Origin: an uncultured Bacillales bacterium
Lineage (GTDB): Bacteria; Bacillota_I; Bacilli_A; RF39; UBA660
DNA length: 64,000 nucleotides
Direction of reading: 5' to 3'
NCBI GenBank assembly: GCA_946412015.1
Contig: CAMKGA010000004.1
Location: 3,858 to 67,857, forward strand
Below, one piece after another: positions 23,006 through 63,362 of this stretch (the first letter of the stretch is position 1; each line of letters starts with the position of its first letter). A model generated the notes under the pieces. The model saw nothing but the letters and a program-made list of their open reading frames with translations. It was not told the DNA's origin and made no database searches. A program made the translations under genes and the position numbers.

Positions 23006-23128
23006 GTTACTGATACTAGAATTATAATAAATAATGTGATAAAATTATTTTGTAAAATAAAACAGTACAGTTTTGTTTTATAATTTCTCTTTTATTCAAA
23101 TTTTTATTTTGAAAGGATGGTAGATTTT

Positions 23129-41685: not shown

Positions 41686-41982
41686 ATGGCAAATATAGTT
41701 ATTGATGCAGGACATGGAGGTACTGATTCTGGTGCTGTTGGAAATGGTATTATCGAAAAAGATTTAACACTTAAAATATCTAAATATATGGCTGATAGAT
41801 TAAAGCAACTTGGAGCTAATGTTACTTTGACAAGAGATACTGATGAAACATTAACACCCGATGAAAGGGTAAAAAGAGTATTAAATGCATATGGTAACAA
41901 TAAAGATGTTTTAGTTATTTCTAATCACATAAATGCTGGAGGTCCTGATACAAGTAATTATGAATGGTTAAATTTAATATAA
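41686..41982 (+). pseudogene. N-acetylmuramoyl-L-alanine amidase (Amidase_3, CwlD/endolysin-like) N-terminal fragment only
   Basis: MANIVIDAGHGGTDSGAVG...LVISNHINAGG is the first ~85 aa of Amidase_3. The ORF then diverges and stops (98 aa versus ~180-aa domain), so it is truncated at ~41945. Confidence 0.55.
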
Positions 41983-42064
41983 TAAATATCTAATAATGAA
42001 ACAATTAAAATTGTTTGAGATAAAGAACAAGAAAAAAATTGTAATGAGAAAGAGGTGATTGATT

Positions 42065-42613
42065 ATGGATTTAAAAATAATATATTATGTACATGGTACA
42101 ACATTTGATAATGCATCTAAAAAATGTAGTGGTTGGAAACAAGTAGAATTGAATGATTTAGGAAAAGAACAAGCAATTAATTTAGGAAAAAATACACCAT
42201 ATAAATTCGATGTATTATTTACATCAGACTTGATAAGAGCAAAGGAATCGGCAAAATTAGCTTTTCCAAAGTTTCAAGTAATTGAAGACAAAAGGCTTAG
42301 AGAATGTAATTATGGAGATTTAGATGGTGAAGATAAAAATCAAATTATATATGAAGACCATATAAATAATCCATTTCCAAACGGAGAATCTTTAAAAGAT
42401 GTAGAAAAAAGACTTAGAGATTTTTTTAAGTATGTAAAAGAAAATTACAAAGATAAAACTATAGGAATTATAGCTCATAGAGCCCCTCAATTAGCAATCG
42501 AGGTTATTACAAAGAATATATCTTGGGAAGAAGCTAATGCTAATGATTGGAGAAAAACAGGTGCTTGGCAGCCAGGTTGGGAATATTGTTTAAAAAAATC
42601 TGATTTATTTTAA
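42065..42613 (+). CDS. histidine phosphatase family protein (phosphoglycerate mutase-like)
   Basis: The start (IYYVHGTTFDNASKKCSGW) and the overall histidine-phosphatase (branch 1) pattern; ATG 42065 with RBS agaggtga. Confidence 0.65.
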   Translation: MDLKIIYYVHGTTFDNASKKCSGWKQVELNDLGKEQAINLGKNTPYKFDVLFTSDLIRAKESAKLAFPKFQVIEDKRLRECNYGDLDGEDKNQIIYEDHINNPFPNGESLKDVEKRLRDFFKYVKENYKDKTIGIIAHRAPQLAIEVITKNISWEEANANDWRKTGAWQPGWEYCLKKSDLF

Positions 42614-44263
42614 GAAATTTTTTCCTTTTCTCCCGTATGGGTTACGAACTCTATTATCTTTATATTTAAAAGTATGGTTATCTAGAATATTGTATTTAAG
42701 TTTAATAATTATATTTCTATCTTTGTCTGCTTCAATTCTTTCTATTAGAGCAAATAATAAATTTTTATTAGGGTTGTTTAAGTTTAACAACTTTTTTATT
42801 TTGTCTTCATAGTTTAGATATTTATCAGTATTATCTTTTTCATTTTGAATTTCATTATTAATATCTTCTAAAATATTATTTAAATCTTTTAATTTATCTT
42901 CATATGGCTTTGATAATATTTTATATTGATTAGGCGTAATATTACCTTCTAAACGGTCTTTATATATAGTTTGAATAGTGTCTAATAATTTGTTTTGTTC
43001 TTTAATAATACCTTCTTTTCTTTTTTTATAATCGTTAGAATTATTCTTAGTTCTTTTAATAACTTCTTCATTTAATTCTTTTATGTTTAAATTAAGAAAT
43101 AATTTAGATAGTATTTTTTTTAGTTCTTTTAAAACTAATTCTTCAAAATAATCATATGAAAAAAAGTGCGATGTGCATAATTTTCTAACTGGGTCTCTAG
43201 CATACTTATTACAATTAATACACCAGTAGTCTTGCTTTTTTCTATAAAGTACACTAAGTCTATTTCCACATTCATGACAAAATAATAATCCTTCTAATAA
43301 TCTTTCAGGTCTTTTTCTTTTAGAATAAGATCTATTTTTATTATTTGTTTTTTTATTAATTAACATAAATGTATTTTTGTCTACTAATGCTTCATGTGTA
43401 CCTTCAACAATTATCCATAATCTTTTATCTAAAGTAATTCTTTTTTTCGATTTATAATTTATATTTGTCTGAGTACGTTGTACCATGTCACCAGTATACA
43501 TTCTGTTTTGTAATATATTATGAATTGAATGTATTGTCCATTTATTATTATTTTTATTTCGATTAGAAATAGGCAAGTTTTTATAATCTGCAGGAGTTGG
43601 TGCACCCATATTAGTTAATTTAGTTGCTATTTCACTAATTTTTATGTTATTTGCTCTTAGTTCAAATATTATTTTTACATATTTAGCTACTTGAGGATCA
43701 GGTATCAAATGTCCTTTATCATTTGGGTCTCTCATATATCCATAACAAGGTTTGCTACCTATAAATTTACCATCTTTTCGTTTTAAATCTAATACATTTC
43801 TAATTTTTAATGAGTTTTGTTTACTATAGTAATCATTGCACGCAATTATAAATGTTGATGAATCGTTACTAGCTTGATCCTTTATGCTATCGTAATTTTC
43901 TACAATCGATATAAATCTTACTTTGTTTTCTGGGAAATACTTTTCAATGTAATATCCTGTCATTACATGGTCTCTACCTAATCTTGATAAATCTTTTACA
44001 ATAACTAAATTAATTGTTTTGTTTTTTATATCTTCTATCATTTTATTAAATCCAGGTCTATTGAAATTAGTGCCAGAATACCCATCATCTATATATTCTT
44101 TAATTAATTTAAAGCTGTTCTTTTTACAGTAAGTACGCAGTATATTTTTTTGATTTATTACGCTTTCACTATCTAATTCGTGCTTCTTGTCTTTATCTTC
44201 TTGTGATAATCTTATATAAATACCAGCGTTATAATCTGAGTCTAGTAAGCAGCTATAATTCAT
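42605..44263 (-). CDS. large serine recombinase (TnpX/TndX/SpoIVCA-like)
   Basis: N-terminal resolvase catalytic domain YNAGIYIRLSQED...DDGYSGTNFNRPGF...VIVKDLSRLGRD, recombinase domain, and a C-terminal zinc-ribbon (CHECG...C) with coiled-coil, ~550 aa. Confidence 0.9.
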   Translation of the reverse strand: MNYSCLLDSDYNAGIYIRLSQEDKDKKHELDSESVINQKNILRTYCKKNSFKLIKEYIDDGYSGTNFNRPGFNKMIEDIKNKTINLVIVKDLSRLGRDHVMTGYYIEKYFPENKVRFISIVENYDSIKDQASNDSSTFIIACNDYYSKQNSLKIRNVLDLKRKDGKFIGSKPCYGYMRDPNDKGHLIPDPQVAKYVKIIFELRANNIKISEIATKLTNMGAPTPADYKNLPISNRNKNNNKWTIHSIHNILQNRMYTGDMVQRTQTNINYKSKKRITLDKRLWIIVEGTHEALVDKNTFMLINKKTNNKNRSYSKRKRPERLLEGLLFCHECGNRLSVLYRKKQDYWCINCNKYARDPVRKLCTSHFFSYDYFEELVLKELKKILSKLFLNLNIKELNEEVIKRTKNNSNDYKKRKEGIIKEQNKLLDTIQTIYKDRLEGNITPNQYKILSKPYEDKLKDLNNILEDINNEIQNEKDNTDKYLNYEDKIKKLLNLNNPNKNLLFALIERIEADKDRNIIIKLKYNILDNHTFKYKDNRVRNPYGRKGKNFLK

Positions 44264-44540
44264 ATTTATTACCTTCCTTATCATACTATCTTTTAGTAAT
44301 TAATTCTTTTATCAAATAGTTAATAATGATTTCAGTAAATAATTTTTCCTTATTTTTATTCATATTTTAATTTATGATTTATATTTTTATATTATTCTTT
44401 TTTCTTCATAATTGGTCTATATTTACACAACTACAGTTTGTCTAAAAATGTTGTTTTTTATATAGATTTATGGTATACTCGAATAGTAAAGTAGTAAATC
44501 ATAAAAAACCTTTACGATGTATCATAAAGGAGGTGGAAAA

Positions 44541-45089
44541 ATGAAAGGGGATAAGAAAATTCTAGTAGCTGCCATTTTAGTTTTACTATTAGCAGTATGC
44601 TTTGGAACATATGCTATTTATAGAGCAACTGGAAATGCAACTGGTAGTATTAAAGCTGCAACTTGGTCTGTTAAAGTAAAAGATACTGATATTGCTTCAA
44701 CAAACTATACTTTTGGTGCGGATGATATTACTTGGACTACATTAACTGGTTATAATCATACAATCGCACCAGGATCAGAAGGATATATTGAAATTCCTGT
44801 TGATGCTACTGGATCTGAAGTAGATGTAGTTCTTACTGCAACATTAGGTTCAACTAATCTTCCAAATGGAATGACTGCAACTCTTGCTAGTGGTAGCGAT
44901 TCACAAACAATTGCTTATTCTGAAACTGAAGGTGCAATGAAAAAAAAGGTAAGAATTAATATTGCATGGGCTGGAGCTGAATCAGATACTGCAGAAAAAG
45001 ATGGTACTGACTTAGCAGCTAAAGGTACAACTTTAAGTATTCCAGTAACATTAACTGCTAAACAATCATTAACTCATCATAATCCATAA
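44541..45089 (+). CDS. TasA/camelysin-like secreted fibre protein with SipW-cognate-type signal peptide
   Basis: N-terminal KKILVAAILVLLLAVCFGTYAIYRATGN resembles SipW-cognate signals (…GGTYAYF…). Thr/Ser-rich beta-type body; encoded in an operon with sipW. Confidence 0.5.
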   Translation: MKGDKKILVAAILVLLLAVCFGTYAIYRATGNATGSIKAATWSVKVKDTDIASTNYTFGADDITWTTLTGYNHTIAPGSEGYIEIPVDATGSEVDVVLTATLGSTNLPNGMTATLASGSDSQTIAYSETEGAMKKKVRINIAWAGAESDTAEKDGTDLAAKGTTLSIPVTLTAKQSLTHHNP

Positions 45090-45194
45090 GAGCAGTAAAA
45101 ATAAGAAAAGAATAATACATATTATTCTTTTGTTTAAAGTTTATAAGTAATTGTAGATTTTAACCAGAAGAATAATTTTTAGGAAGTGAAACAA

Positions 45195-46412
45195 ATGTCT
45201 AAACAAGAAAAAAATAATGATAGTAATATAATAAATAGAGTAATTCAAGTGATATTAATAATTATAATTATTATTTTGTTATTACATAACTGTTCTTTAA
45301 TTAAGAAGAAAAATGGTAAGGGGAATACTATTGATATAAAATGTGATGATGGTAAGTGCAGTAAAGATGATAAAATGATAGATTGTTTGTACGATGATGA
45401 AAATAGTAAATGCTTAGTTCCTAATTTTGTAGGGAAAAGTAAAAAAGATGTTTTAAAATGGCTTAGTTTATTATCAAATAATATTGATGTTGAGTTTAAA
45501 CTAGTAGAAAATCCTAATTATAAAGATGTAGTTGTTTTAGAACAATCAATTGTAGGAAAAAGTGTTAAAGAACTAATTAAAGGTAGAAAAAAAAATGTAA
45601 TTACAATTGTAAATAATGGTTCACTTGTAGATTGTAATAAAGATAGTCAAAATGATAAATGTACATTACCAAATTTTATAGATAAGAAAATAAGCAATGT
45701 AGAAAAATGGCTTGATAGTATTGCAAATAATGTAAAAATAAAATATGTTTATGTTGATTCTGATAAAATGGCAGGAACAATTGTTAATCAATCTATAAAA
45801 GGTGGCGCACCTATTAAAGAACTCATAAATAGTGACGAGGTAATAATTATTTATATTTCTAAAGGAAGTAAAAATAATAAATCTAATAACAGTAATAATA
45901 GCAATCAAGGTAGTAGTAATATACCGGAATCTAATCCAAGTTCAGATTCTGAAACAGAACCAGAGTTAGAAGATGACTTTTATGTTAGTGATAATGATAA
46001 AGTAAAATGGCATGATGACGTGAATTTAAATGTTTTTGAAGATTCATTGAAGATATCTAAAGTTAACGGAAAAATTGCTCCTGAAAGTACTGGAACTTAT
46101 AAATTCACGGTTAATAATGGAACTAAATATAATTTAAAATATAAAATTTCCTTTAATGAAGAAAATGAATATAATATGAATATAAAATATAAACTAAAAA
46201 AAGGAAATACATATTTAGTAGATGAATATGTTTCATATAATCAATTAAGTATAAATAATATGACATTAAACAGTACTAAGTCTGAGACATATTATTTGGA
46301 ATGGAAATGGGTTGGAGATAACGATTTAAATGATACTGCTATTGGTAATAGTGCTAAAAATAGTGATATTAAATATAGTTTAAAAATAAATGTAGAGGCA
46401 GAGAGTATATAA
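45195..46412 (+). CDS. membrane-anchored protein with two PASTA-like domains and C-terminal domain of unknown function
   Basis: N-terminal TM; two ~65-aa units (LVPNFVGKSKKDVLKWL...VLEQSIVGKSVKEL...VNNG and LPNFIDKKISNVEKWL...VNQSIKGGAPIKEL...SKG) fit the PASTA pattern. Confidence 0.4.
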   Translation: MSKQEKNNDSNIINRVIQVILIIIIIILLLHNCSLIKKKNGKGNTIDIKCDDGKCSKDDKMIDCLYDDENSKCLVPNFVGKSKKDVLKWLSLLSNNIDVEFKLVENPNYKDVVVLEQSIVGKSVKELIKGRKKNVITIVNNGSLVDCNKDSQNDKCTLPNFIDKKISNVEKWLDSIANNVKIKYVYVDSDKMAGTIVNQSIKGGAPIKELINSDEVIIIYISKGSKNNKSNNSNNSNQGSSNIPESNPSSDSETEPELEDDFYVSDNDKVKWHDDVNLNVFEDSLKISKVNGKIAPESTGTYKFTVNNGTKYNLKYKISFNEENEYNMNIKYKLKKGNTYLVDEYVSYNQLSINNMTLNSTKSETYYLEWKWVGDNDLNDTAIGNSAKNSDIKYSLKINVEAESI

Positions 46413-46861
46413 TGAATAAAGTATTTAAAATAATATTTGATGTTATATTTATTATTTCTATTATTATATTAGGACTATATTTTTTATTAAGATTATTAAA
46501 GATAGCTGAAATATATGAAGTTAAAACAGGCTCTATGGAAGATGATATTCATGTTGGTGATTATATATTAATTATAAAAAAAAGTGACTATAAAGTAAGA
46601 GATGTAGTTACATATGAAAAAGATGGATACTATGTTACTCATAGAATTATAAAGAAAAATAAAAATAAAGTTATTACTAAAGGTGATGCTAATAACGTTG
46701 CAGATGAAGAGATAAAAGTATCTAGTATAGTCGGAAAAGTAATATATCATGGAGGAATATTAAATTTCTTAATAAACTTTAAATATTTTATAGTTTGTGG
46801 ATTATTAGGATTATATTTATTAAGTACATTTTTTAATAAAAAGATAAAAGAACAGGAGTAA
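46412..46861 (+). CDS. sipW: signal peptidase I, SipW type (S26B, ER/archaeal-like)
   Basis: VKTGSMEDDIHVGDYILI...VTHRI...VITKGDANNVADEE...GKV matches SipW-type peptidases; N- and C-terminal TM. Confidence 0.75.
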   Translation: MNKVFKIIFDVIFIISIIILGLYFLLRLLKIAEIYEVKTGSMEDDIHVGDYILIIKKSDYKVRDVVTYEKDGYYVTHRIIKKNKNKVITKGDANNVADEEIKVSSIVGKVIYHGGILNFLINFKYFIVCGLLGLYLLSTFFNKKIKEQE

Positions 46862-46883
46862 AAAAAGTGAAAGGAGTATTGAT

Positions 46884-47360
46884 ATGAAAAATAAGATAAT
46901 AAAATCAATGTTATTGATTGTAGGAATATCACTTGTTTTTTATGCAGTACATACTTTTGCTTTAATGAGAGCTAGCGGTTCTGTTAATGGCTCAATTAAT
47001 ACATCTACATGGAGTGTAACAAGAAATCATAGTCAGAGTGGAGATTCAATAAATGTATATAAGGGTGGAGCTACAGATAGTTATACATTAACAGTTCAAA
47101 GTAATTCGCAAGTTGATGTTTTATATAAAATTATTATTAGTAATTTACCCTCTGGTGTTGAAGTAGATATTGATAATACCGGTTATCTAACTCCAACGGC
47201 TAGTGGAACTTTAACAATAGAAAATGCCAATACTGTTATAAATTATGGCGATTCGACAAAAACAAAAACGCATATTTTAACATTTAGAGCTACTAATGGC
47301 GCACAATTGGTAACAAATCAAAAAATAGATATTGATGTAGAATTTAGACAAGGGATTTAA
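46884..47360 (+). CDS. TasA/camelysin-like secreted protein, second paralog
   Basis: N-terminal TM plus ALMRASGSVNGSINTSTWSV, similar to the 44541 protein (…TGNATGSIKAATWSV). Confidence 0.5.
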   Translation: MKNKIIKSMLLIVGISLVFYAVHTFALMRASGSVNGSINTSTWSVTRNHSQSGDSINVYKGGATDSYTLTVQSNSQVDVLYKIIISNLPSGVEVDIDNTGYLTPTASGTLTIENANTVINYGDSTKTKTHILTFRATNGAQLVTNQKIDIDVEFRQGI

Positions 47361-47393
47361 TAAAAAAATAGAAAAAGGAAGTGAGGTATAGAT

Positions 47394-50300
47394 ATGAAAT
47401 TAAAGAAGCATAAAAAAATTTTGATTCTTTTTGCTTTTGTTGTTGCTTTCTATGCCATTGTTAGTGGGACTTTTTCTATTTATAGAGAAAAAAAAGGGGA
47501 TAAGATTGATTTAAGTATTTTGGATGCTTCTGGAATGGTTACAGTAAATTTTAAGGCTAATGGTGGAGTAATTGATTCTGAAGATGAGACAAAAACTGTT
47601 CAATCAGGTACGACTATTGGACAATTACCAGAAGCAACAAGAGATGATTATAATTTTGATGGATGGTATACTGAACCAACGGGTGGAGAAAAAATTGATG
47701 AGAATACTGTGGTAACGGGAACAACTGTTGATTATTATGCACATTGGATTAAAATAGTATGTAAAAAGGCCGTAACTGGTACATTACACAGTGAAACTTG
47801 TGCTCAAGGTGGAGCGTGTTCAGGATCTGGCGGTGGTTATCACGCTAATGATACTATCTATTATGGAACAATTCCAAGTTCTATTAGCCCTATTGTCGGA
47901 GATGCTTATGATTGTGATGTAAACGATGATGATACATGGGATCCTCAGACTGAAAGATTTTATTATGTTAGACATTATGGGACAACAGATGAATTTGAAA
48001 ATTCTGTATTGGTTCATTATACAAGTTTTGATGATTTAGGGCAAATGGATTCATCTCCTTCAAGAACCAATTATTTATACGGAGATGCTAGTGATTATTT
48101 ACCTACATCTGCAACTTGGGATAATCCAGCTCTTATTGAAATGAATGGTAATATTACTAGATTTATTGCACGAGAGGATTTAGCTGCAGCTTGTGGTTCT
48201 GAATCAGGAGGAAATAAATTTGAAAATTGCCGCTTCTATTTAGAAAATAGTAGGTATCAATCTAGTAGTTTAGGTAGAGCAGGTATATGGTTAGCTGCCG
48301 AAGGAAATACACATTATAGAATTCATACAGAACAACTATCTGTTTCAGTTGCTGATACAGATAGTAAAAATACAGTTAGACCAACTATTCAAATTCCGTC
48401 TAATAGAATAGAAGATTTTAACAAGAAGAAAAAATATACTATAAATCTTGATTCTCAGGATGGAATGCCAAGCGAGTATTCTTTTGAGAAATGGGAAGGT
48501 GAAAGATTAGACACACTTCCAATCCCAACAAAATTTGGTTATATTTTTTCTGGATGGTATACAGACAATGAAGATTATACAACTGAAATTACACAAAATA
48601 CTATTGTAACAGGTAATATTAATGGATATGCTAAATGGGTACCTAAACAAGTGCCATTAGATTATGTATTCTATATACCAGGAGAGTGTTCTTTTACATC
48701 AACAGGTATTGTAAATGGTGAAAATGGAGATTGTATTAGTACAATTAATCCAACAGGATCAAATATTGATTATACAGGAAGTTCTTTATCTTCAAAAAAA
48801 TACATAGATACTCAAGTAGGTTTATATAATTCAATAAATCACGATAAAGATTTTGAAGTGGGATTTACTATCGTAAGTTATAATTCAGCTGATAATATAA
48901 ATAGAGCAACATTAGTTCATTCAAAAGCAGAAATAGTAAATAGATATCCAGGATTTACGTTTAGAAAAAAAGATGCTACAAATAATTTTTTACTACAGTC
49001 TAGAGAAACACAAAGTAGTAATGCTGAGTATATAATTGCATCCTCATCTGTACAAAATGTAAAAATATATAGAATAAGTAATTCTATTTACTATAGTATA
49101 AATGATGGTGAAAAAACTAAATTAAATGATTTAAATCAATACAATCCAGTTTTTGATTTAACAACTTGGTTTGGTGGTGCTCCAAAAGATGAATCAGCAC
49201 TTGTTGCGGATAGATTATTTATAGGTACATTAAGTAATATGTATATCAAACTATCTCCAACAGCAAAAGTAACATTTGATCCTAATTATACTGGAGAACC
49301 ATCATTTGAACAAGATGCTAATGTTGGTAAAAAAATTGGTGATTTACCAACAATTACTAGACCGGGATATGCATTTATTGGTTGGTATACCGATCCAGTT
49401 AATGGTTCTAAGATTAACTCAAATACTATAATTGATGGAGATATTAGATTTTATGCTCATTGGACTGATGGTGCTACAGTAACACTTCATGCAAATGGTG
49501 GAAGTGTAAGTCCAAATACAATAACAGTTTATCATGGACATGAAGTAGGAAATCTTCCGACACCAGAGAGAACAGGATATACTTTTGATGGTTGGTATCA
49601 AGATGTGAATCTTACAATTCCTGCTACATCAGAAACAGTAATAAATCAAAATACAGATTTCTACGCAAAATGGATTGAAAATGTTACTATTACATTTGAT
49701 GCTGATGGTGGAGAAGTAAGTCCAACTAGTAAAACACAAGCTTCTGGACTTGCAATTGGAGATTTGCCAATACCATCAAAAATAGGTTATGACTTTGTAG
49801 GTTGGTATACCGATAATACATATACAACAGAAGTAACTTCTTCGACAGTGTTTAATACAACAACAACAATTATTGCAAAATGGGAAGAATTAGATGATAT
49901 AACTGTTAATTTTGATGCAGATGGAGGAAGTGTAAGTCCAACTAGTGTTACATTCCCACCTGGATCAGCAATAGGTGAATTACCAATTCCGGAAAAAACA
50001 GGATATAATTTTGTAGGTTGGTATACGGATAATACATATACAACAGAAGTAACATCTTCTACAACATTTAATACAACAACAACAATTATTGCAAGGTGGG
50101 TAGATGAGCAATATGTAGCTTGTGTAGGATTGAATTGTTATCTAACATTAGATGAAGCTATAGCTGCGGTACCAACTACTAAAGTAAAAACTAAAGTTAA
50201 AATCTTAAAAGATATTACGACTACAGATACTATAAATATAACAAGTAGCAAATGGGTTGAATTAGATATTGGAAATAATACTATTAGTGCTACTAGCGGA

Positions 50301-53114: not shown

Positions 53115-53120
53115 AAAAAT

Positions 53121-53160
53121 TAGTAGTGTTGGTAATTATATTTACCAGCACTATTTATTT
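53121..53160 (+). terminator. putative rho-independent terminator after giant gene
   Basis: Hairpin agtgttggtaa-ttatat-ttaccagcact (one G-U pair) followed by a T-rich run. Confidence 0.4.
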
Positions 53161-53204
53161 TGAAATCTTGATAAGTTTAGTAAAATATGATATTATTCTA
53201 CTAG

Positions 53205-53660
53205 GTGATTAGAGTGGAAACGAAGCAAAGAAAAATTAAATTAAAAAGCATAATTATATTATTAAGTATAGTTTTAATAATTGGAGTTGTGTTAGTATTT
53301 ATATTGAAAAAAAATAATACAATAGATGATGGTCTTAAACACAATAATAATAAAAGTTTTGTACAAAAGCAAAAGGTAAAGGGGATTATTTTTAAAAATA
53401 TAAAATGTACTTATGATGGTAAAAATTCATTGATTAGTTATACTATGGTTAATAAAACGAAAAATAAAATATATTTAAACAATTATGATGTAATAGTAAA
53501 GGATAAAAATAAAGTTAAACTTGTTAGAATAGCTGCTCACGTTACACAAACTCTATCGCCTGATGAACCAGTAGATATGGCTAATCAAGTAGTAGGAGTA
53601 GACTTAACAAATGCTCATTATATGGAATTAAAATTGAATACCAAAAAGAAGGATAAGTAA
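53205..53660 (+). CDS. small membrane-anchored hypothetical protein
   Basis: N-terminal TM (SIIILLSIVLIIGVVLVFIL); no recognised domain. Confidence 0.3.
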   Translation: MIRVETKQRKIKLKSIIILLSIVLIIGVVLVFILKKNNTIDDGLKHNNNKSFVQKQKVKGIIFKNIKCTYDGKNSLISYTMVNKTKNKIYLNNYDVIVKDKNKVKLVRIAAHVTQTLSPDEPVDMANQVVGVDLTNAHYMELKLNTKKKDK

Positions 53661-53821
53661 TATGAGATTACTTATTTTTTTAATAAATATATAAATAGTA
53701 ATATATTTTATAATATAATTTATTTATAATATCTTCTATCGTGAGGTGGCGACAGTCATTGTGTAACAAATATTAAGTATAACAATTAAAGCCTAAATAT
53801 GATAAGAAAAGAGGAAATGCT

Positions 53822-54172
53822 ATGAATATTAGTTACATTAAACAAGGGGATTATTTATTACCTGATTTAATACTAAAAGAGAAAGTTCAATATAATATAG
53901 GAAAATATGGATTATTAAGATTAGAGTATATAAAAAAATATAAACTTGGATTATATTTTGATTTACTTGTTAATGATAATTTAAATGAATATCTTCAAGA
54001 TATAGACACTACTGTTATGGAGAAGGTGCAAAGTTTAATTAAAGAACTTGATGAAAAAGAAAATATAAATGAAAAATTAAAACAAGATAATCAAATACTT
54101 TGGGTAAGTAAAATGAATAATATTAAAAATATAGCAGAAGAAATAATTCTAAAGGAGTATATCTATGTGTGA
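53822..54172 (+). CDS. TnpV-like protein (Tn4451/Tn5397-type mobile element accessory protein)
   Basis: 116 aa; length and blocks (…EYIKKYKLGLYFDLL…NQILWVSKMNNIKNIAEEII) resemble what I recall of TnpV. This was not verified by search. Confidence 0.35.
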   Translation: MNISYIKQGDYLLPDLILKEKVQYNIGKYGLLRLEYIKKYKLGLYFDLLVNDNLNEYLQDIDTTVMEKVQSLIKELDEKENINEKLKQDNQILWVSKMNNIKNIAEEIILKEYIYV

Positions 54173-54464
54173 TATTACCGATAAAGAATTTGAAAGAATA
54201 TACTTACCAGTATGTATTAATTATGATAACTATCTAAAAGAATTTGTAATACCCGATGTAGTAGCTTTTTATATAGCAGATAATTTTTATAAGAAAGTAC
54301 TTTCTAAAGCACCACTTTATAATCATATTAATTCAGCAATAGATATTTTTAACGTAAGATGTGATATAGATAAATTAATACCATCTATAAAAAAGATATT
54401 AAAAATAAAATATAATTTAAGGATAGTAAAAGATAATCCATTAATATTAAAGAAATTTTATTAA
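54165..54464 (+). CDS. hypothetical protein (99 aa)
   Basis: ORF overlapping the tnpV-like stop by 8 nt. Confidence 0.2.
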   Translation: MCDITDKEFERIYLPVCINYDNYLKEFVIPDVVAFYIADNFYKKVLSKAPLYNHINSAIDIFNVRCDIDKLIPSIKKILKIKYNLRIVKDNPLILKKFY

Positions 54465-54696
54465 AAAGAAGAACTCTATCAAATTTAAACGATAGAGTTT
54501 TTAAGTTCAATTATTATTTTAGGAGTTATGTTATTGTCTAGCCAGCACTTAATTTGTACTCTCGTACGAAATTCTTTCGTGGGATTACTCCCAAACCCTA
54601 TTTTAAAAATTTGTAAGTATTTCAATGTCAAAATTAAAAATTTGTCGAATTATATGTTATAATAATATTGATTTGAAACTTTAGGAGTGAGAGAGT

Positions 54697-55353
54697 ATGA
54701 AAGAAAAATGTGGAGTAATTTATATATTAACTAATCCATCATTTCCAGAGTATATCAAAATTGGATATGCTGACGATGTTGAAGCAAGAGTAAAACAATT
54801 AAATAATTCTGAGGCTGTTCCTTTTTCATTTCATATTTATGCAACATTTGATGTAACTGAGAGATTAACTGATATAAAATTACACAAGTTTATAGATACT
54901 ATAAATCCAGAACTTAGAAGTAAAGAAAAAATAGGAGATAAAATTAGAGTCAGAGAATTTTATCATATGAGCCCAGAAGAAATGTATTCTGCATTTGAAA
55001 GTATGGCTGAAATAAATGGAACAACTAATAGACTTCATTTATGGAAGGAAACAAATGAAGAAATAGAAGATAGGAAAGAAGCATTATTATTATCAAAAAA
55101 TAGACATCATTTTAAAAATATAAATTTTCATTCAAGTTTAACAGGAAAAGATTATTATTCTAAAACAAATGAAGATGGAACTTTGGGTATATATGAAAAA
55201 GATACAGATAATGAAGTTCCTAATAATTCAAATCCCTCAAAACGTCAAATCTTATATTCAGCACTTGAAGATTTAGGTGGAGATGTATCTAGTGGAAATA
55301 CTTTATATCAATTAGAGCATAAATTAGAGAAAATTTTAGTTAGTAGGAAGTGA
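54697..55353 (+). CDS. T5orf172 / GIY-YIG superfamily domain protein
   Basis: GVIYILTNPSFPEYIKIGYADDVEARVKQLNNSEAVPF matches the T5orf172 (MUG113-like GIY-YIG) consensus. RBS ggagtgagag. Confidence 0.6.
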   Translation: MKEKCGVIYILTNPSFPEYIKIGYADDVEARVKQLNNSEAVPFSFHIYATFDVTERLTDIKLHKFIDTINPELRSKEKIGDKIRVREFYHMSPEEMYSAFESMAEINGTTNRLHLWKETNEEIEDRKEALLLSKNRHHFKNINFHSSLTGKDYYSKTNEDGTLGIYEKDTDNEVPNNSNPSKRQILYSALEDLGGDVSSGNTLYQLEHKLEKILVSRK

Positions 55354-55357
55354 TTAT

Positions 55358-56488
55358 ATGTCAAAGAATCATCAGTTAACAAACGCAAAAAAAAATAAAG
55401 ACGATGAGTTTTATACTGAATATTCAGATATTCAAAAAGAAATAAATGCCTATATAGAATATAATCAAGATGTTTTCAAAGATAAAACAATATTACTACC
55501 ATGTGATGATCCAGAGTGGTCAAATTTTACAAAGTTTTTTGCTCAAAACTTTGAAAGATTTGGATTAAAAAAATTAATAAGTACGAGTTATGCTAATGAT
55601 AAAAAGAATGATATATATATTCAATTATCATTATTTGAATCAGAGTCACCTAAATTTGATAAGAATAAGACTAATTCACATGGGAAAATATTTACATTAG
55701 ATAGAGATACAAATAAATCAGGTAGAATTGATATAAATGATTTAGAATGGGACTATCTAAAAGGAGATGGAGATTTTAGATCTGACGAAGTGAAAAAATT
55801 AAGAGATGAAGCTGATATAATAGTTACTAATCCACCTTTTAGTCTATTTAGAGAATTTATTGATTGGATTTTTGAGGGTAAAAAAGATTTTATAATATTA
55901 GGAAATGAAAATAATGAAACGGATAAAGATATCTTTACTTTAATTAGAGAATCAAAGATGTGGCTTGGTAAATCTAATGGTGAAATGGCTTTTAAAGTTC
56001 CAAAAACATCAGAAAAAAGAGATACAAGATTTTGGATAGATGAGACTGGTCAAAAATGGCGAAGTTTTGGAAATATGTGCTGGTTTACCAATCTTGATTT
56101 AGGAAGAAGACATCAACCACTGAGATTAATGAATATGGCTGATAATTTGAAATATAATAAACCATTAATAAAAACATTAAGTGAGAAGTATAATGTTGAT
56201 TTCTATCCTGAATTTGATAATTATGATGTGATAGAAGTTCCAAGATATGATGCAATTCCTTATGATTATAACAAACCAATGGCTGTTCCAATTACTTTTT
56301 TAAAGTATCATGACCCACATCAATTTAAAATTTTAAATGCAAATGATTTTAGAAAAAATAATTCCATTCCGATTAAAGCACATGGATTGATAAAAGATAA
56401 GGAAAGCACTATAAATGGGAAGGCAACATATGTTAGAGTTGTAATTATAAGTAGAGGTGAAGAATATGAAAACAATATTGAAAACTGA
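55358..56488 (+). CDS. EcoRI-methylase-family N6-adenine DNA methyltransferase
   Basis: N-terminus …NAKKNKDDEFYTEYSDIQKEI… matches what I recall of the M.EcoRI N-terminus (…KAKKSKSDEFYTQY…); catalytic TNPPFS (NPPF) motif at ~aa 157. Confidence 0.65.
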   Translation: MSKNHQLTNAKKNKDDEFYTEYSDIQKEINAYIEYNQDVFKDKTILLPCDDPEWSNFTKFFAQNFERFGLKKLISTSYANDKKNDIYIQLSLFESESPKFDKNKTNSHGKIFTLDRDTNKSGRIDINDLEWDYLKGDGDFRSDEVKKLRDEADIIVTNPPFSLFREFIDWIFEGKKDFIILGNENNETDKDIFTLIRESKMWLGKSNGEMAFKVPKTSEKRDTRFWIDETGQKWRSFGNMCWFTNLDLGRRHQPLRLMNMADNLKYNKPLIKTLSEKYNVDFYPEFDNYDVIEVPRYDAIPYDYNKPMAVPITFLKYHDPHQFKILNANDFRKNNSIPIKAHGLIKDKESTINGKATYVRVVIISRGEEYENNIEN

Positions 56489-57629
56489 TTTAACTGTTAG
56501 AGATATAAATGAAGGATTTGTTTATAATGAGTATGAAGGTAAAGGTTTATTTGGTTGGGGTGGAAAATTAACTATTCAACCAGAATATCAAAGGAATTAT
56601 ATTTATGCTGATGGGAAAAGAGATGTTGCAGTAATTGACTCATTATTAAAAGGATATCCTTTAGGTTTGTTATATTTTGTTAAAGTTGGGGAAGATAAAT
56701 ATGAGATATTAGATGGACAACAAAGAGTTACTAGCTTCGGAAGATTTATTACGGATAAATTTGCTATTAAGGATGAACATGGCATGGAGCAATATTTTGA
56801 TGGTTTTGCCAAGAATTTACAAGATAAAATTTTAGATTCTCAATTAACAATTTATATTTGTGAAGGTGAAGAATCAGAAATTAAAGAATGGTTTAAAACG
56901 ATTAATATTGTAGGTGTTCCACTTAATAATCAAGAATTATTAAATGCAATTTATTCAGGACCATTTGTAACTATGGCTCGTGAAGAATTCTCTAATTCTC
57001 AAAATGCAAATATTCAAAAATGGAGTGCATATATAAAGGGTGATGTAAATAGACAAGAGTATCTTGCAACAGCACTTAATTGGGTAAGTAAAGGGAATGT
57101 TGATAGTTATATGAGTCAACACAGATTTGATACTAATATTACAGAATTAAAATCATATTTTAACTCTGTAATAACTTGGGCATCAACTGTATTTAAAGAT
57201 GTTAAATCTGATATGAGGGGCTTAGAATGGGGAAGATTATATGAAATGTATCATAATAATTCATATGATCCTAACAAAGTTTCAGAAATACTATGTAAAT
57301 TATATGCTGACCCTCAAGTACAAGATACTAAGGGTATATGCGAGTATATATTGGGTGGATGTAAAGATACTAAATTATTAAATATTAGAGTATTTGATGA
57401 TAATACAAAGCGAGTTGTATATGAAAAACAAACTCAAGAAGCAAAATTAAAAGATATTAGTAATTGTCCATTATGTGCAATGGGAAATGACAATAATAAA
57501 AATAGAATTTGGGAATTAAAAGAGATGGATGCAGATCATGTAACAGCATGGAGCAAAGGCGGCTCTACTGATATTGATAATTGCCAGATGCTATGTCAAA
57601 CACATAATCGAGCAAAAGGAAATAAATAG
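56466..57629 (+). CDS. DUF262 (ParB/GmrS-like, DGQQR) + C-terminal HNH nuclease protein
   Basis: ILDGQQRVTSF is the DUF262 signature. The C-terminus CPLC...DADHVTAWSKGG...NCQMLCQTHNRAKGN is an HNH motif. Its start overlaps the MTase stop by 23 nt, which indicates translational coupling. Confidence 0.7.
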   Translation: MKTILKTDLTVRDINEGFVYNEYEGKGLFGWGGKLTIQPEYQRNYIYADGKRDVAVIDSLLKGYPLGLLYFVKVGEDKYEILDGQQRVTSFGRFITDKFAIKDEHGMEQYFDGFAKNLQDKILDSQLTIYICEGEESEIKEWFKTINIVGVPLNNQELLNAIYSGPFVTMAREEFSNSQNANIQKWSAYIKGDVNRQEYLATALNWVSKGNVDSYMSQHRFDTNITELKSYFNSVITWASTVFKDVKSDMRGLEWGRLYEMYHNNSYDPNKVSEILCKLYADPQVQDTKGICEYILGGCKDTKLLNIRVFDDNTKRVVYEKQTQEAKLKDISNCPLCAMGNDNNKNRIWELKEMDADHVTAWSKGGSTDIDNCQMLCQTHNRAKGNK

Positions 57630-57704
57630 TATTAAAGCGCTAGTACAGGCTTAAATATATTTAAGTTTTTGTATTGCGCTTTTTATGTAGTGGGAGGTAA
57701 TTAT

Positions 57705-59834
57705 ATGCAGTTAGAATTTTTAAAACTAAAAAAGGAAAATATTTTTTGTGAAGATTTTATTGATATGAATAAAAATAATATAATTGATTTTACTAATACA
57801 AACATCAGTGTTTTATATGCTCCTAATGGTGTTGGTAAAAGTAGTTTTTGTAAAGTTTTAGATAATCAAGGAGAATTTACACTTAACTATGATGGAAATC
57901 AATATTCAACTAATAATTGTAATTTGTTTCATATTATAAATGATCAGAATAGTAGAAATATTATTAAAGGAAAAGCGCAAGACTTTTTATTAGGTGATAA
58001 TATAGCTAGAGAATATGAACTTAAAGAATGGATTGATGATAAATTTGATGATATTTATAAGGATTTAAGATTATCATTAAAAAATAATATGAATTTGTCT
58101 AAAATTTCAGATAATAAATTTTCATGGATAGATCATTCATTACATAATATTCTGAAAAAGATTGTAAATGTTAGAGCAAAATCAACAGATATTAATCTAG
58201 ATGATTATATACATCTTATTCAAAAATTGAAAGAAGAAAAACTGGATGAACATAATGCTGATAAATTTAAGTATGTCATTTCTGATGAAAATTTTGAAAT
58301 TATTAATAGAATAGTGAGAATTTCTAATATTAAGGAATCAAACGATTTTTCCAAAATCGAACAATATGATGATGCTATTATTATATTAAATAAATATAAT
58401 GAATTAAGTAATTGTATAGTTTGTGATAATGACAATATTAATTCAAAAGAATTACTGGAAAAGAAGAATATTAAAAAAGCAGAAATAATTAATAATCTTG
58501 ACGATGATACTAAAAATATATTAATTGAAATTATAAATAGAATTGGTGAAACTGATCCTTTTAATATAAAAAATACTTTGACTCGTGCAATATCATCTGG
58601 AAGTATAGATATTGTTTCAAATCTTATAAAAGAGATTGAAATGTACATTAATATTTATAAATCTTTAATAAACAATTTATTATCTTCTTCACTTTCAAAA
58701 GAATTTGTTGATAAATATACAGAATATAAAGAAATGTTGACTAAAGAATTAAATATTACTGATGAGGACTTAATGTTTATTGAAGAATTTATAGAAAAAA
58801 ATATCAATAAAAGCATAAAATTACAAAGAGCAGATAATAGAATTGTTATTACTTTAGATTCTGAAGATTTAATTGGAGTAGCGCGTGAAAATTTAAAATT
58901 GAGTTCTGGTGAACAAAATTTTATTTCATTAACATTTGAACTTTTGAAAGCAAAAAATGTTGAAAATGAAATAATAGTTATAGATGATCCAATCTCAAGT
59001 TTTGACTCTATTTTTAAAAATAAATTGGTATATGCTATAGTAAAATTTTTAATAAAAAAGAAAGTAATTATTTTAACTCACAATATTGATTTAATACGAT
59101 TAATTGAATATCAAAATAAAAATAGTTTTAACATTTATTTATTTAATAATTTTGATGGACAAGAAAATGGATTTATTGAAGTTAATCGTAATGAAAAAAT
59201 GCTTTTAATTTCAATCCCTGATTTTCTCGATTTTATTCGTTCGAATGAAATTATTGAATTTGTAAAAGATGAAAAATTATATATTTATTCATTAATTCCA
59301 TTTATGAGGGGATATGTTAAATATACAGGTGATCAAGTTATAAAAAATCAATTAACAAAATTAATGCATGGATATGAAACAGAATATGTTGATTTAGGAC
59401 AAATATATTATTCACTATTTAATAATAACTTAATTAATAATTATACTATAAATATTAGTGATATATTAAGTTTAGATATTTGTAATCTAAATGAGATTAT
59501 TGACAAAAACGAATATCCAATTTTGAATAAAGTTTTATGCAATAATCTTACATATTTGTATTTAAGATTGAAAACTGAAAAAACATTAGTCGATAAATTT
59601 AGTATTAATACCACTAAATATGATCAACTTTCAAGTATAATTTTCCAATCATTTAAAGAAGAAACAATTGAAAATAGTAGGATGAGAATATTTTTCTATT
59701 CAAAAAAAACATTGCTTAACGAGTTTAATCACTTTGAAGGAAATATAAATATTTTTCAGCCTGCTATAGATATATCTGAGAATATTTTAATCAAAGAGAG
59801 AAATGAAATTTTAGATAAATTAAATAATTTATAA
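57705..59834 (+). CDS. ABC/SMC-like ATPase (AAA_15/AAA_21-type) with ~400-aa uncharacterised C-terminal region
   Basis: Walker A VLYAPNGVGKSSF, signature-like LSSGEQNF, Walker B IIVIDDPISSFD. RBS gtgggagg; 710 aa. Confidence 0.6.
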   Translation: MQLEFLKLKKENIFCEDFIDMNKNNIIDFTNTNISVLYAPNGVGKSSFCKVLDNQGEFTLNYDGNQYSTNNCNLFHIINDQNSRNIIKGKAQDFLLGDNIAREYELKEWIDDKFDDIYKDLRLSLKNNMNLSKISDNKFSWIDHSLHNILKKIVNVRAKSTDINLDDYIHLIQKLKEEKLDEHNADKFKYVISDENFEIINRIVRISNIKESNDFSKIEQYDDAIIILNKYNELSNCIVCDNDNINSKELLEKKNIKKAEIINNLDDDTKNILIEIINRIGETDPFNIKNTLTRAISSGSIDIVSNLIKEIEMYINIYKSLINNLLSSSLSKEFVDKYTEYKEMLTKELNITDEDLMFIEEFIEKNINKSIKLQRADNRIVITLDSEDLIGVARENLKLSSGEQNFISLTFELLKAKNVENEIIVIDDPISSFDSIFKNKLVYAIVKFLIKKKVIILTHNIDLIRLIEYQNKNSFNIYLFNNFDGQENGFIEVNRNEKMLLISIPDFLDFIRSNEIIEFVKDEKLYIYSLIPFMRGYVKYTGDQVIKNQLTKLMHGYETEYVDLGQIYYSLFNNNLINNYTINISDILSLDICNLNEIIDKNEYPILNKVLCNNLTYLYLRLKTEKTLVDKFSINTTKYDQLSSIIFQSFKEETIENSRMRIFFYSKKTLLNEFNHFEGNINIFQPAIDISENILIKERNEILDKLNNL

Positions 59835-59985
59835 TTAGGTTCTATGAGAGTACAGTTTTTACTCCTTTTTTCTTTTTTGTAGAATATCTTTTTATTTTTA
59901 TTTGATGTAAGATGAAAACACCTAGGAGAAGTAGTATGTAAAAGTGCACTTTTATAAAGATATATTTTATGTATGATTCTATAGA

Positions 59986-60450
59986 ATGGATACTATGGAA
60001 GAATTTATAAATCCAATTATACCAATATCGGTATTAAGTGATAGTAGAATATTATCTTTAGAAAAGTTATTATTACTACACATAATTTCTTTGTGTAAGA
60101 ATAAAGGATATTGTTGGCCTACTAATAGGTATTTTATGAATAAGGTTAATTGCACCAAGACAACAGTATCAAAGAGTATAAGTAGTTTATCAAAGTTTGG
60201 ATATATTGATATAGAAATTAATAATAGTGAAACAAATAATTCAAAGAGGATAATTAGACTATCCGAAGTGTTAAAGAAAAGAATAACAAGTATTCAAGGA
60301 AATATTAATACTAGTATTCAAAATAATTTTAACCATTATAATAAATATAATAAAAATAATAAAGATAAAATAGATAACATTTATTATGTTGATGATAATG
60401 GTATGAATACTGGCATGGTAAACCTACCCTATCAAAAGAAGCAACTATAG
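59986..60450 (+). CDS. HTH protein resembling replication-initiator N-terminal (RepA_N/DnaD-like) domain
   Basis: ISVLSDSRILSLEKLLLLHIISLCKNKGYCWPTNRYFMNKVNCTKTTVSKSISSLSKFGYI resembles the N-terminal segment of 22058..22723. Confidence 0.35.
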   Translation: MDTMEEFINPIIPISVLSDSRILSLEKLLLLHIISLCKNKGYCWPTNRYFMNKVNCTKTTVSKSISSLSKFGYIDIEINNSETNNSKRIIRLSEVLKKRITSIQGNINTSIQNNFNHYNKYNKNNKDKIDNIYYVDDNGMNTGMVNLPYQKKQL

Positions 60451-60718
60451 AAGAGCAAGAAGAGTTAGAGAGAATATTAGAGAGTTTTAAAGAAAATGAG
60501 GAAGATATAAAATGACTAAGACACTCATAAACTTAAATGAGGTGGCTTATGTTTAATATAATAGAAACTTTCAAAGATGATTCTCCTAATTTTAATGAAC
60601 TGGTAACTGAATTTATAAAAAGTATGGTAAATAGAGACTGATATCGTGGGCCAAGTTAAATTTATGTGGTATAATTTAATTGGCTTTAGTTGTTATACAA
60701 CGGAAAAGGATAGTAAGC

Positions 60719-62299
60719 TTGTATAACACTTTAAAACAGATGCCAGATTACTATAAAGCAGGAATTTATATAAGATTATCAGAAGCTGATGAAGGCAAGT
60801 CTTACGAATCTGAAAGTGAGAGTGTCCTTAACCAAAGAAATATACTAATGAATTTTATTAAGGAAAAAGGATTTATTTTTGTAGATGAATATGTAGATGA
60901 TGGATATTCTGGCACTACTTTTGATAGACCAGGATTTCAAAGACTAATTGAAGATATTAAAGCTAAAAGAATTAATCTTGTAATAGTAAAAGACTTATCA
61001 AGATTAGGTAGAGATCATATTTTAACAGGTTATTATGTTGAAACTTTCTTCCCTGAAAATGGAATAAGATTTATTTCTATGCTAGAGGGGTATGATAATG
61101 CTGTAAATCAAGCAAGCAATGATTCATCAACATTTATCTTTGCTTGTAACGATTTTTATAGTAAACAAAATTCAGTTAAAATACGTAATGTTTTAAATGA
61201 TAAAAGAAGAGATGGTAAGTTTATAGGTAGTGTTCCAAGTTATGGATATTTAAGAGATCCAGAAGATAAGGGACACTTAATACCAGACCCAGATTATGCG
61301 TGGGTAGTAAAAAAGATATTTAATATGGCTTATAGTGGAGTAGGAGTTTCTGAAATAACTACTTATTTGAATGACAATAACATTAAAACACCTAGTAGTT
61401 TAAAAAGAAAAAATCCTAATTCAAAAGCTAAATATAATCCTATGTGGACTATTTCTTCAGTTAAAAAGATATTAAAAAATCAAATGTATGTAGGTGATAT
61501 GGTACAAAGTGTACAAACTAAGGTATCATATAAATCTAATAAGAAAAAAACATTACCTAAAAGTAACTGGGATATTGTTAAAAATACTCATGAACCATTA
61601 GTAGATAGATTTATATTTGAAAGTGTTCAAAATAATGTTAAAAGAACAAATGTTTCTAATGTTACTAAAAGAGAAAAAAGATTATTTGAAAATTTATTAT
61701 ATTGTAAAGAATGTGGTAATACTTTAACAGTATCATATAGAAAACAACATAACTATTGGACCATTAATTGTAATAGATATTCAAGAGATCCAAAAAGAAG
61801 AATGTGTGAACCTCATTTTAGCCCGTATGATAAATTAGAAGAAGCATTACTTGAAGTTATAAAAAATACTTGTAAAAAGTATTTAAAAAATTTAGATATA
61901 TCAGAAATATCTAAAAATATTAATAAAAAAGATAATAGTGATATTAATAATCAGATAAATGATTTAAGAAAACAAGAAAAAGACTTAATTAGTAAATTAG
62001 ATATGCTATATCAAGATAAATTTAATGGAATAGTATCTGAAGAAATGTATTTACGAATATCTAGAGAAACAGAGAATTCTTTAATTAGAACAAGAGAAAA
62101 AATCCAAAGTCTACAAGATATAAAAGAAGAGAAGAAAGTTAATAAATCAGAAATAAAAGACTACGAAGATAAAATAAGAAAATTAATTGATATTGATAAT
62201 TCTTCAAGAGAGTTAATACAAGCCTTAATCGATAAAATTGTTATAGATAAAGATAGAAATATAGAAATTATCTATAAATTTAGTATACTTAATAATTAG
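60719..62299 (+). CDS. large serine recombinase (second copy, TnpX/TndX-like)
   Basis: YKAGIYIRLSEAD...DDGYSGTTFDRPGF...VIVKDLSRLGRD is ~70% identical to the 42605..44263 protein in the catalytic domain; C-terminal zinc ribbon and coiled-coil. Probable TTG start at 60719 (RBS aaaagga); alternative ATG at 60740. Confidence 0.9.
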   Translation: MYNTLKQMPDYYKAGIYIRLSEADEGKSYESESESVLNQRNILMNFIKEKGFIFVDEYVDDGYSGTTFDRPGFQRLIEDIKAKRINLVIVKDLSRLGRDHILTGYYVETFFPENGIRFISMLEGYDNAVNQASNDSSTFIFACNDFYSKQNSVKIRNVLNDKRRDGKFIGSVPSYGYLRDPEDKGHLIPDPDYAWVVKKIFNMAYSGVGVSEITTYLNDNNIKTPSSLKRKNPNSKAKYNPMWTISSVKKILKNQMYVGDMVQSVQTKVSYKSNKKKTLPKSNWDIVKNTHEPLVDRFIFESVQNNVKRTNVSNVTKREKRLFENLLYCKECGNTLTVSYRKQHNYWTINCNRYSRDPKRRMCEPHFSPYDKLEEALLEVIKNTCKKYLKNLDISEISKNINKKDNSDINNQINDLRKQEKDLISKLDMLYQDKFNGIVSEEMYLRISRETENSLIRTREKIQSLQDIKEEKKVNKSEIKDYEDKIRKLIDIDNSSRELIQALIDKIVIDKDRNIEIIYKFSILNN

Positions 62300-63271: not shown

Positions 63272-63362
63272 TTACTCTAAGATGTAATAATTTTGAAAAA
63301 CAAAAAGTTATTACGCTTAACCGTAATAACTTTCTAAAATAAAAAAGTAGTAGGTGAGGTAA

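Follow-up and report, generated by a model that had tools for sequence, protein, structure and literature searches.

The 64,000-nucleotide stretch of contig CAMKGA010000004.1 analyzed here (the window) comes from an uncultured Bacillales bacterium, has ∼25% G+C and carries nearly all of its genes on the plus strand. It contains two integrative elements, each with its own large serine recombinase (LSR), lying head to tail in a single attachment site (attB) within a chromosomal amidase gene. Element A extends from 41943 to 53746 (11.8 kb), with the gene of its recombinase, LSR-A, at the left end on the minus strand. Element B extends from 53747 to beyond position 64000 (at least 10.3 kb), with the LSR-B gene near its right end on the plus strand. 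The two elements belong to different families, which have the core of the attachment site in common and are each found separately in other genomes. Tandem accretion, in which two autonomous elements of different families came to occupy one attB, is very probably the explanation of this arrangement. A previous reading of the same DNA, made from the sequence alone, had the two recombinases bracketing one cargo region of ∼16 kb. This region is instead divided by a hybrid attachment site at 53745–53746 into the cargo of element A (44.5–53.7 kb) and that of element B (53.8–60.5 kb). Among the options listed in that reading, the one of adjacent elements describes the locus well, each LSR being the integrase of its own element, side by side in one attachment site.

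The feature that defines the whole locus, and that was overlooked in the sequence-only reading, is the split amidase gene. Its 5′ half, AmiN (41686–41942, plus strand), covers positions 1–79 of the 174 positions of the Pfam model Amidase_3. The corresponding open reading frame (ORF; 41686–41982) runs on into element A and stops at 41982. The gene is split after the codons for NHINAGG, at 41941–41942. As the homology to the intact amidase genes of two other loci, L029 and L030, ends at 41943, the core of the left attachment site (attL) of element A is positioned at 41941–41942. (Labels L001–L094 designate relative contigs from collections of metagenome-assembled genomes [MAGs], metagenomes, and viruses; A-type loci are L001–L013.) The intact protein is an N-acetylmuramoyl-L-alanine amidase made of an Amidase_3 catalytic domain and LysM repeats, devoid of a signal peptide. 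The 3′ half of the gene (AmiC) was not found in the window by tblastn with phage amidases as full-length probes. We rejected the possibility that the amidase is a prophage endolysin: its neighbors at the various loci are chromosomal (Ham1, NrtR-like/Nudix, metK, tRNA methyltransferase, BacA), Ham1 and NrtR-like regulator genes preceding AmiN in the window, and no holin or virion genes are nearby. Because the catalytic Glu lies in the missing half, the amidase is presumably inactive while the site is occupied. It would be restored only if the whole stack, or each of the two units, were excised.

LSR-A (42605–44263, minus strand) and LSR-B (60719–62299, plus strand) are intact large serine recombinases whose genes diverge, with their 5′ ends facing each other, as was first reported. 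Both contain the Resolvase, Recombinase, and Zn_ribbon_recom domains of Pfam: Resolvase (PF00239) is matched at 8e-23 by LSR-A and at 1e-21 by LSR-B, and PF07508 and PF13408 exceed the Pfam cut-offs in both. The catalytic domain of each includes a YIRLS motif with the nucleophilic serine. The longest ORF for LSR-A is 42605–44284 (minus strand, 559 aa). Translation likely starts at the ATG at 44263, behind AAGGAAGG, giving a protein of 552 aa that public assemblies contain in exactly this form. For LSR-B, the longest ORF is 60680–62299 (plus strand, 539 aa), and we placed the start at the TTG at 60719 because its relatives (69–94% identity, mostly 524–529 aa) have the resulting length of 526 aa. 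The catalytic domains of the two recombinases are identical at 108 of 158 positions (68.4%), in line with the ∼70% estimated earlier. Identity is 48.9% overall and only 30% over the C-terminal 160 residues. In large serine recombinases, directionality is governed by a coiled-coil motif located within the zinc-ribbon domain.

The boundaries of element A are visible at both ends. Its attL (41920–41975, plus strand) consists of the amidase-derived B arm TCTAATCACATAAATGCTGGA, the core GG at 41941–41942, and the P′_A arm TCCTGATACAAGTAATTATGAATGGTTAAATT; this junction and the P′ arm are conserved in 11 A-type loci. At its right end, the junction shared with element B (53720–53775, plus strand) consists of the P_A arm TTTATAATATCTTCTATCGTGA, the core GG at 53745–53746, and the P′_B arm TGGCGACAGTCATTGTGTAACAAAT. 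On the right of this core, the segment 53743–54637 aligns at 80% identity with positions 680–1565 of L028, the left end of a B-type element, where AmiN lies leftward. On the left of the core, the arm TTTATAATATCTTCTATCGTGA resembles the right attachment site (attR) arms of the A-type loci L005 and L010, and it is an inverted repeat of the P′_A arm of the window at 14 of 20 positions. As the left flank is thus a P_A arm and not AmiN, the junction is a hybrid, P_A-GG-P′_B. Five places had been proposed for attachment sites; those near 41.94 and 53.745 kb are real, and nothing resembling such a site was seen at 44.3–44.5, 60.45–60.7, or 62.3–62.4 kb. The two cores in the window (41941 and 53745) both read GG on the plus strand and are therefore in direct orientation, so that site-specific recombination between them would delete the intervening DNA rather than invert it.

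By aligning the junctions from the window and 20 or more other loci, we reconstructed attB and the attachment sites of the two elements (attP). The attB site, TCTAATCACATAAATGCAGGA-GG-TGGCGAAGGTGCTGAAGTAATATATGCA, encodes SNHINAGG|GEGAEVIYA and is intact in L029 and L030. Its short forms are AATGCAGGA-GG-TGGCGAAGG, with the codons NAGG|GEG, and AATGCTGGAGG-TGGCGA…. The attP_A site, derived from L008, is CCTTTATCATTACTTACATCACCA-GG-CTCAGATATAAGTAATTATGAAGG, and attP_B, derived from L028, is ACACTTTGATTATCTCCA-GG-TGGCGATAATCATTGTGT; each is an imperfect inverted repeat centered on GG. In L008, attL equals attB through GG and attR equals attB from GG on, which leaves only this dinucleotide for the crossover. 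The two families thus have attB and the core in common and dissimilar attP arms. They also differ in polarity: the recombinase gene is found on the P′ side in family A, with the core appearing as CC on its coding strand, and on the P side in family B, with GG on the coding strand. For serine integrases, a nonpalindromic core sets the orientation of insertion. With a fixed core orientation and opposite polarities, the two families insert their recombinase genes in opposite directions into the same gene, which accounts for the divergence of LSR-A and LSR-B.

Each family was found on its own, complete, between the two halves of the amidase gene. A scan with LSR-A that covered one genome per species yielded 13 orthologs with 72–85% identity in gut MAGs labeled Bacilli or Erysipelotrichales. 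AmiN lies just 3′ of the recombinase gene and convergent to it in 11 of these 13 loci, the contigs of the other two being too short. AmiC, the amidase 3′ half with LysM, is found 8.5–10 kb from AmiN on the same strand in L005, L008, L009, and L013; L010 also carries AmiC, on a contig that ends before AmiN. In L008, a typical A-type locus, the genes following AmiC encode an OLD-family ATPase, a type IIG restriction–modification enzyme, an HTH_36 protein, o143, the LSR, and o317, up to AmiN, and the flanking genes are NUDIX, metK, and mscS. This layout is that of a small defence island occupying a chromosomal amidase gene. B-type elements likewise split the amidase, with the LSR gene pointing toward AmiC, as deduced from three complete relatives. 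L028 displays on one strand AmiN, a TnpV remnant, o99, cargo, an HTH_36 gene, a 30-aa ORF, LSR-B, o246, Bro-N, two small ORFs, and AmiC-LysM. L027, whose recombinase is 94% identical to LSR-B, carries T5orf172, EcoRI-type methylase, and GmrSD-HNH genes as in the window, followed by HTH_36, LSR-B, Bro-N, and AmiC-LysM. L094 encodes a methylase identical to that of the window and ends with Bro-N, a spacer of ∼330 nt, attR, and AmiC.

Empty sites are represented by the intact amidase genes of L029 and L030; the neighbors downstream of the intact gene in L030 (tRNA U5-methyltransferase, YuzI, and BacA) are the same as in the occupied locus L027. Among the matches listed in one search, all amidase relatives were truncated (90–155 aa). 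We rejected the idea that this is general, since a search with the reconstituted catalytic domain as query found many intact Amidase_3 or Amidase_3-LysM proteins, 72–91% identical overall and 77–83% over AmiN. Occupied sites are also numerous, with hundreds of split amidase alleles in metagenomes. We collected 63 junctions with the P′_B arm from JGI metagenome contigs, of which ∼53 abut an amidase B arm, from diverged alleles of the gene. Across these ∼53 junctions, the P′ arm and TnpV are near-constant; a near-constant arm next to diverged amidase alleles indicates horizontal spread.

The stack in the window is not the only one. L082, a 1286-nt contig from an independent sample, has a junction identical to the A–B hybrid of the window, flanked by an o151 gene and a TnpV gene that are 97% and 91% identical to those of the window. 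Its sequence aligns with window positions 53184–54361 and 59899–60022, o99 being joined directly to the region upstream of HTH_36. It therefore lacks the T5orf172, restriction–modification, and AAA_13 cassette of element B, which behaves as a swappable module between conserved ends. In L065 and L089, a recombinase gene of a third family, C (54–59% identical), is located ∼1.1–1.5 kb upstream of a P_C-GG-P′_B junction; L065 runs on through a short B element to AmiC. Finally, L002 has a P_X-GG-P′_A hybrid between AmiN and LSR-A. Together, these four loci indicate that stacked arrays are recurrent at this attB.

These data lead us to propose that a superfamily of small integrative elements, each with its own LSR, uses the amidase attB. 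The hybrid junction would have formed when the attP of the second element recombined with one of the sites, attR or attL, that the first had created; alternatively, a cointegrate may have been integrated. On the right of element B, attR_B and the amidase 3′ half would be found beyond the window. Several points weigh against this model. Canonical LSRs recombine only attP with attB. The formation of a hybrid P-GG-P′ site therefore needs a relaxed partner choice, a putative property of these enzymes that the model requires. We observed no circular attP junction for either family among the 63 metagenome junctions or in IMG/VR, although assemblies rarely capture circles, and so it is only the distribution of the elements that points to current mobility. 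In relatives, LSR-A is preceded by HTH_36 and o143 genes; element A has neither and may therefore be defective. Pattern searches and tblastn revealed no P_B arm, B′ arm, or amidase 3′ half in the window, which places the right end of element B outside it. The expected P_B arm is about ACACWTTGAYTATCNNCA, followed by GG, TGGSGAWGG…, and the amidase 3′ half with LysM, and a third element or a deletion may lie beyond 64 kb.

Could the integrity of the amidase gene be regulated? On this view, excision in a terminal cell type, such as the sporulating mother cell, or under stress would rebuild a CwlC-like lytic amidase, as for skin in sigK and SPβ in spsM. The amidase is cut inside its catalytic domain. 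Its architecture, with a C-terminus that binds the wall and without a signal peptide, is the same as that of CwlC. A SpoIID equivalog is encoded at 12992–13912, near an MreB/Mbl gene; because it exceeds the NCBIfam cut-off (TIGR02870, 331 bits vs. 235), the uncultured low-GC host probably forms endospores. Moreover, the 16 closest relatives of AmiN (≥84% identity) are all split. Both skin and SPβ also use LSRs (PMC5025042; PMC5499854). Against regulated excision, intact alleles are common, and the highly variable cargo, the many diverged amidase alleles, and the near-identical P′ arms point to recent horizontal spread. Where two or three units are stacked, several excisions would have to be coordinated. 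The sole promoter-like match upstream is of the sigma-70 type and not above chance, and the literature searched names no amidase as a target of this kind. We consider regulated integrity improbable. A wider scenario, to which we give a small chance, combines the switching of a CwlC-like amidase by the excision of stacked islands with a parallel evolution of at least three LSR families (A, B, and C) that kept one attB while their attP arms diverged and their core polarity flipped, each using the recombinant sites of the others. If true, this would provide a natural set of enzymes with a common target, differing attP sites, and relaxed partner choice.

It is also unlikely that the two recombinases belong to one composite element moving as a whole, like SCCmec with ccrA/ccrB or other multi-LSR elements, the internal junction being a fossil. 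That the same A–B junction occurs in the independent sample of L082 indicates that the stack is, on some occasions at least, passed on intact by inheritance or transfer, and three LSR genes are present on each of the viral contigs L024 and L025. Nevertheless, A-type and B-type elements each occur alone and complete between the amidase halves. Of the outer sites, attL_A is that of one enzyme and attR_B that of another, and excision of the whole stack would yield a hybrid attP (P_B-GG-P′_A). As L082 shows that the stack persists, a co-mobile composite is conceivable for this particular A–B pair.

The sequence-only reading had suggested that LSR-B might be the integrase of a prophage continuing past the window. 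Element B, or a further stacked element, does continue there, and Bro-N and T5orf172 are phage-associated domains. A prophage is very improbable, however: the complete relatives L027, L028, and L094 measure only ∼5–14 kb and end at the amidase 3′ half, 0.3–1.3 kb after Bro-N, and no virion, terminase, or lysis genes were found in them or in the visible part of element B. In IMG/VR, LSR-B and Bro-N have only distant or partial matches, and the P′_B arm has none. An invertible segment, in which the inverted recombinase genes or their sites would flip the 16-kb interval, is scarcely credible: the LSR genes do form inverted repeats of ∼530 nt with 73–78% identity, but their longest exact match is 20 nt, all attachment cores are direct with no inverted pair in the interval, LSR-A is collinear with its orthologs along its full length with no sign of a chimera, and both proteins are large and of the integrase type, unlike the Hin/Gin-type invertases. 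An inversion between the LSR genes as the explanation for the missing HTH_36 gene upstream of LSR-A was rejected for the same collinearity and short exact matches.

Tandem accretion has counterparts in known systems. Most documented tandem arrays involve tyrosine integrases, whose attL and attR retain the same core region. With LSRs, the sites have no more than the 2-bp core in common, and accretion therefore implies the tolerance of a foreign half-site. Integration of a second element into the recombinant site of the first, resulting in arrays of diverse neighbors, has been described (PMC7192596), including for integrative conjugative and mobilizable elements (PMC5704250). The literature that we searched on tandem arrays and intervening elements names no amidase as a target of such elements. 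The elements skin (SpoIVCA), SPβ (SprA/SprB), and gin (gerE) are likewise LSR elements that interrupt a coding sequence which precise excision would rebuild. They are fixed in sporulation genes and excised in the mother cell, whereas here intact alleles are common and cargo and hosts vary. In SCCmec and other staphylococcal cassette chromosome (SCC) elements at orfX, several LSR-mobilized cassettes (CcrAB) share one attB in direct orientation, with internal att-like junctions; SCC insertion, at the 3′ end of rlmH, leaves that gene active and uses the CcrA/CcrB pair. The A–B array is similar in architecture, but it has a single LSR per unit, different attP arms, and a disrupted target gene.

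Also close in kind are Tn4451/Tn4453 (TnpX, TnpV) and Tn5397 (TndX) of clostridia, which like elements A and B are small LSR-moved elements of low-GC Firmicutes. TnpV is common to Tn4451 and element B, and TndX is the nearest named relative of LSR-B, yet with only 32.5% identity over 97% of LSR-B. We recognized no tnpZ-type mobilization gene or oriT in elements A and B. The core dinucleotide of TnpX and TndX is reported to be GA, compared with GG here, and the target of A and B is one specific codon pair in an amidase gene, their cargo consisting of defence and surface genes and not of resistance genes. The arrangement is ordinary in kind, and the element family and its target seem undescribed. 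Here, LSR-mobilized islands with defence and surface genes are stacked in a target gene that seems not to have been reported before. No current concept is altered by these findings. They provide a resolved map, with exact element boundaries seen in the window, the attB as reconstructed, and a different attP for each of two LSR families with one target, and they identify an amidase gene of uncultured gut Bacilli as a busy landing pad for small defence-carrying islands. The natural pairs of attachment sites and enzymes, with the hybrid junctions, are usable for testing how strictly serine integrases choose their partners and how core polarity relates to orientation. The locus is also a candidate for a lytic enzyme gene that is made whole only by the excision of an element.

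The cargo of element A (44517–53660, plus strand; Pfam, NCBIfam) comprises o190, a PASTA protein, a SipW-like signal peptidase, o158, a 1906-aa protein, and o151, and it is not present in other A-type loci. The 1906-aa product is a Flg_new/Y_phosphatase3 surface protein, and its gene together with sipW would make up a surface-protein operon. The list of genes between the recombinases given in the sequence-only reading was accurate for SipW, this giant gene, TnpV, and the defence cassette; two of its labels had to be corrected. The small ORFs next to sipW had been called TasA-like, and no TasA or camelysin match was obtained for o158, o190, or o151 with Pfam, NCBIfam, or PHROGs. The gene labeled RepA_N-like is the HTH_36/DnaD_N gene of element B described below. 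Searches of the ORFs of both elements with Pfam, NCBIfam, PADLOC, and PHROGs detected no relaxase, type IV secretion system, virion, or invertase genes.

Between attL and LSR-A, element A encodes a histidine phosphatase (His_Phos_1 in Pfam and NCBIfam; 42059–42613, plus strand). This gene position is variable and is occupied by unrelated genes in other A-type loci. The phosphatase and LSR-A genes are convergent and their 3′ ends overlap by 9 nt (42605–42613). A remnant of a Bro-N 5′ end (41972–42043, plus strand) is 82% identical to 62433–62504, forming a 72-nt direct repeat (D6). We rejected D6 as element ends or as a target duplication: it is a Bro-N remnant that begins only at the last bases of the P′_A arm, and long duplications are not produced by LSRs. 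The position of Bro-N seems to shift from one side of attP to the other; in L038, a 1.8-kb unit between the P′_B and P_B arms contains Bro-N only. Upstream of LSR-A, a micro-ORF (44286–44363, minus strand) encodes MNKNKEKLFTEIIINYLIKELITKR, and a related one (MNKDKKELFKEIIINYLIKQITTKN or close variants) was found at this position in 11 of the 12 A-type loci examined, L004 being the exception.

Element B appears to be a defence island with swappable cargo between conserved ends. At its left end, TnpV (Pfam, 5e-35) and o99 (53822–54464, plus strand) are conserved genes of B-type elements that adjoin the P′_B arm in most of the 63 metagenome loci. The defence cargo (54697–59834, plus strand; Pfam, PADLOC) encodes a T5orf172/GIY-YIG protein (PDC-S57), an EcoRI-type methylase, a GmrSD_N + HNH nuclease that matches a type II restriction endonuclease model, and an AAA_13 ATPase (PDC-S06/S46). 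It is swapped or absent among relatives. Next comes the gene for an HTH_36/DnaD_N replication-initiator-like protein (59986–60450, plus strand; Pfam and replication initiation families of PHROGs), found at the same position upstream of the LSR gene in L006, L007, L008, L027, and L028. It is followed by an ORF of 30 aa (60549–60641, plus strand) encoding MFNIIETFKDDSPNFNELVTEFIKSMVNRD, a sequence present exactly on 860 public contigs and called in L027, L028, and L094. The micro-ORFs directly upstream of the LSR genes in both families could encode a leader peptide or else a small protein with an accessory or directionality role.

Downstream of LSR-B lies the gene for a Bro-N/DinD-like protein (62414–63271, plus strand; Pfam; PADLOC candidate PDC-S13, 9e-112). 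Bro-N follows the recombinase gene in L026, L027, L028, and L094 and is a usual neighbor of LSR-B inside the element. Behind it, a hairpin, GTTATTACG-CTTAAC-CGTAATAAC, is located at 63285–63352. In L038 the same hairpin is followed by the P_B arm within ∼20 nt; in the window it is followed instead by an ORF with no PHROGs match (63363–64000, plus strand) that runs off the end, which suggests that extra cargo was added at the right end of element B.

A fourth family of LSRs, 31–33% identical to LSR-A and LSR-B, is found near the amidase gene in L007 (12940–14553), L032, L033, L041, L055, L070, and L088. The distance from the end of the recombinase gene to the amidase start codon downstream of it ranges from a few tens to a few hundred bases. 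At least in L007 and L070, an HTH_36-like gene of its own precedes the recombinase gene. The 5′ flank of the amidase gene thus seems to be a second landing site.

Other mobile and defence genes are located upstream in the window: a tyrosine recombinase (16613–17701, minus strand), a prepilin-type protein (23117–24175), a VirD4/TraG-like coupling protein (25350–26639), a dGTPase (28680–29804), and AbiD/Abi_2 (36545–37468). The dGTPase gives a weaker match to anti-phage dGTPase models. Another integrated element may be present at ∼16–29 kb, as a possible source of transfer functions.

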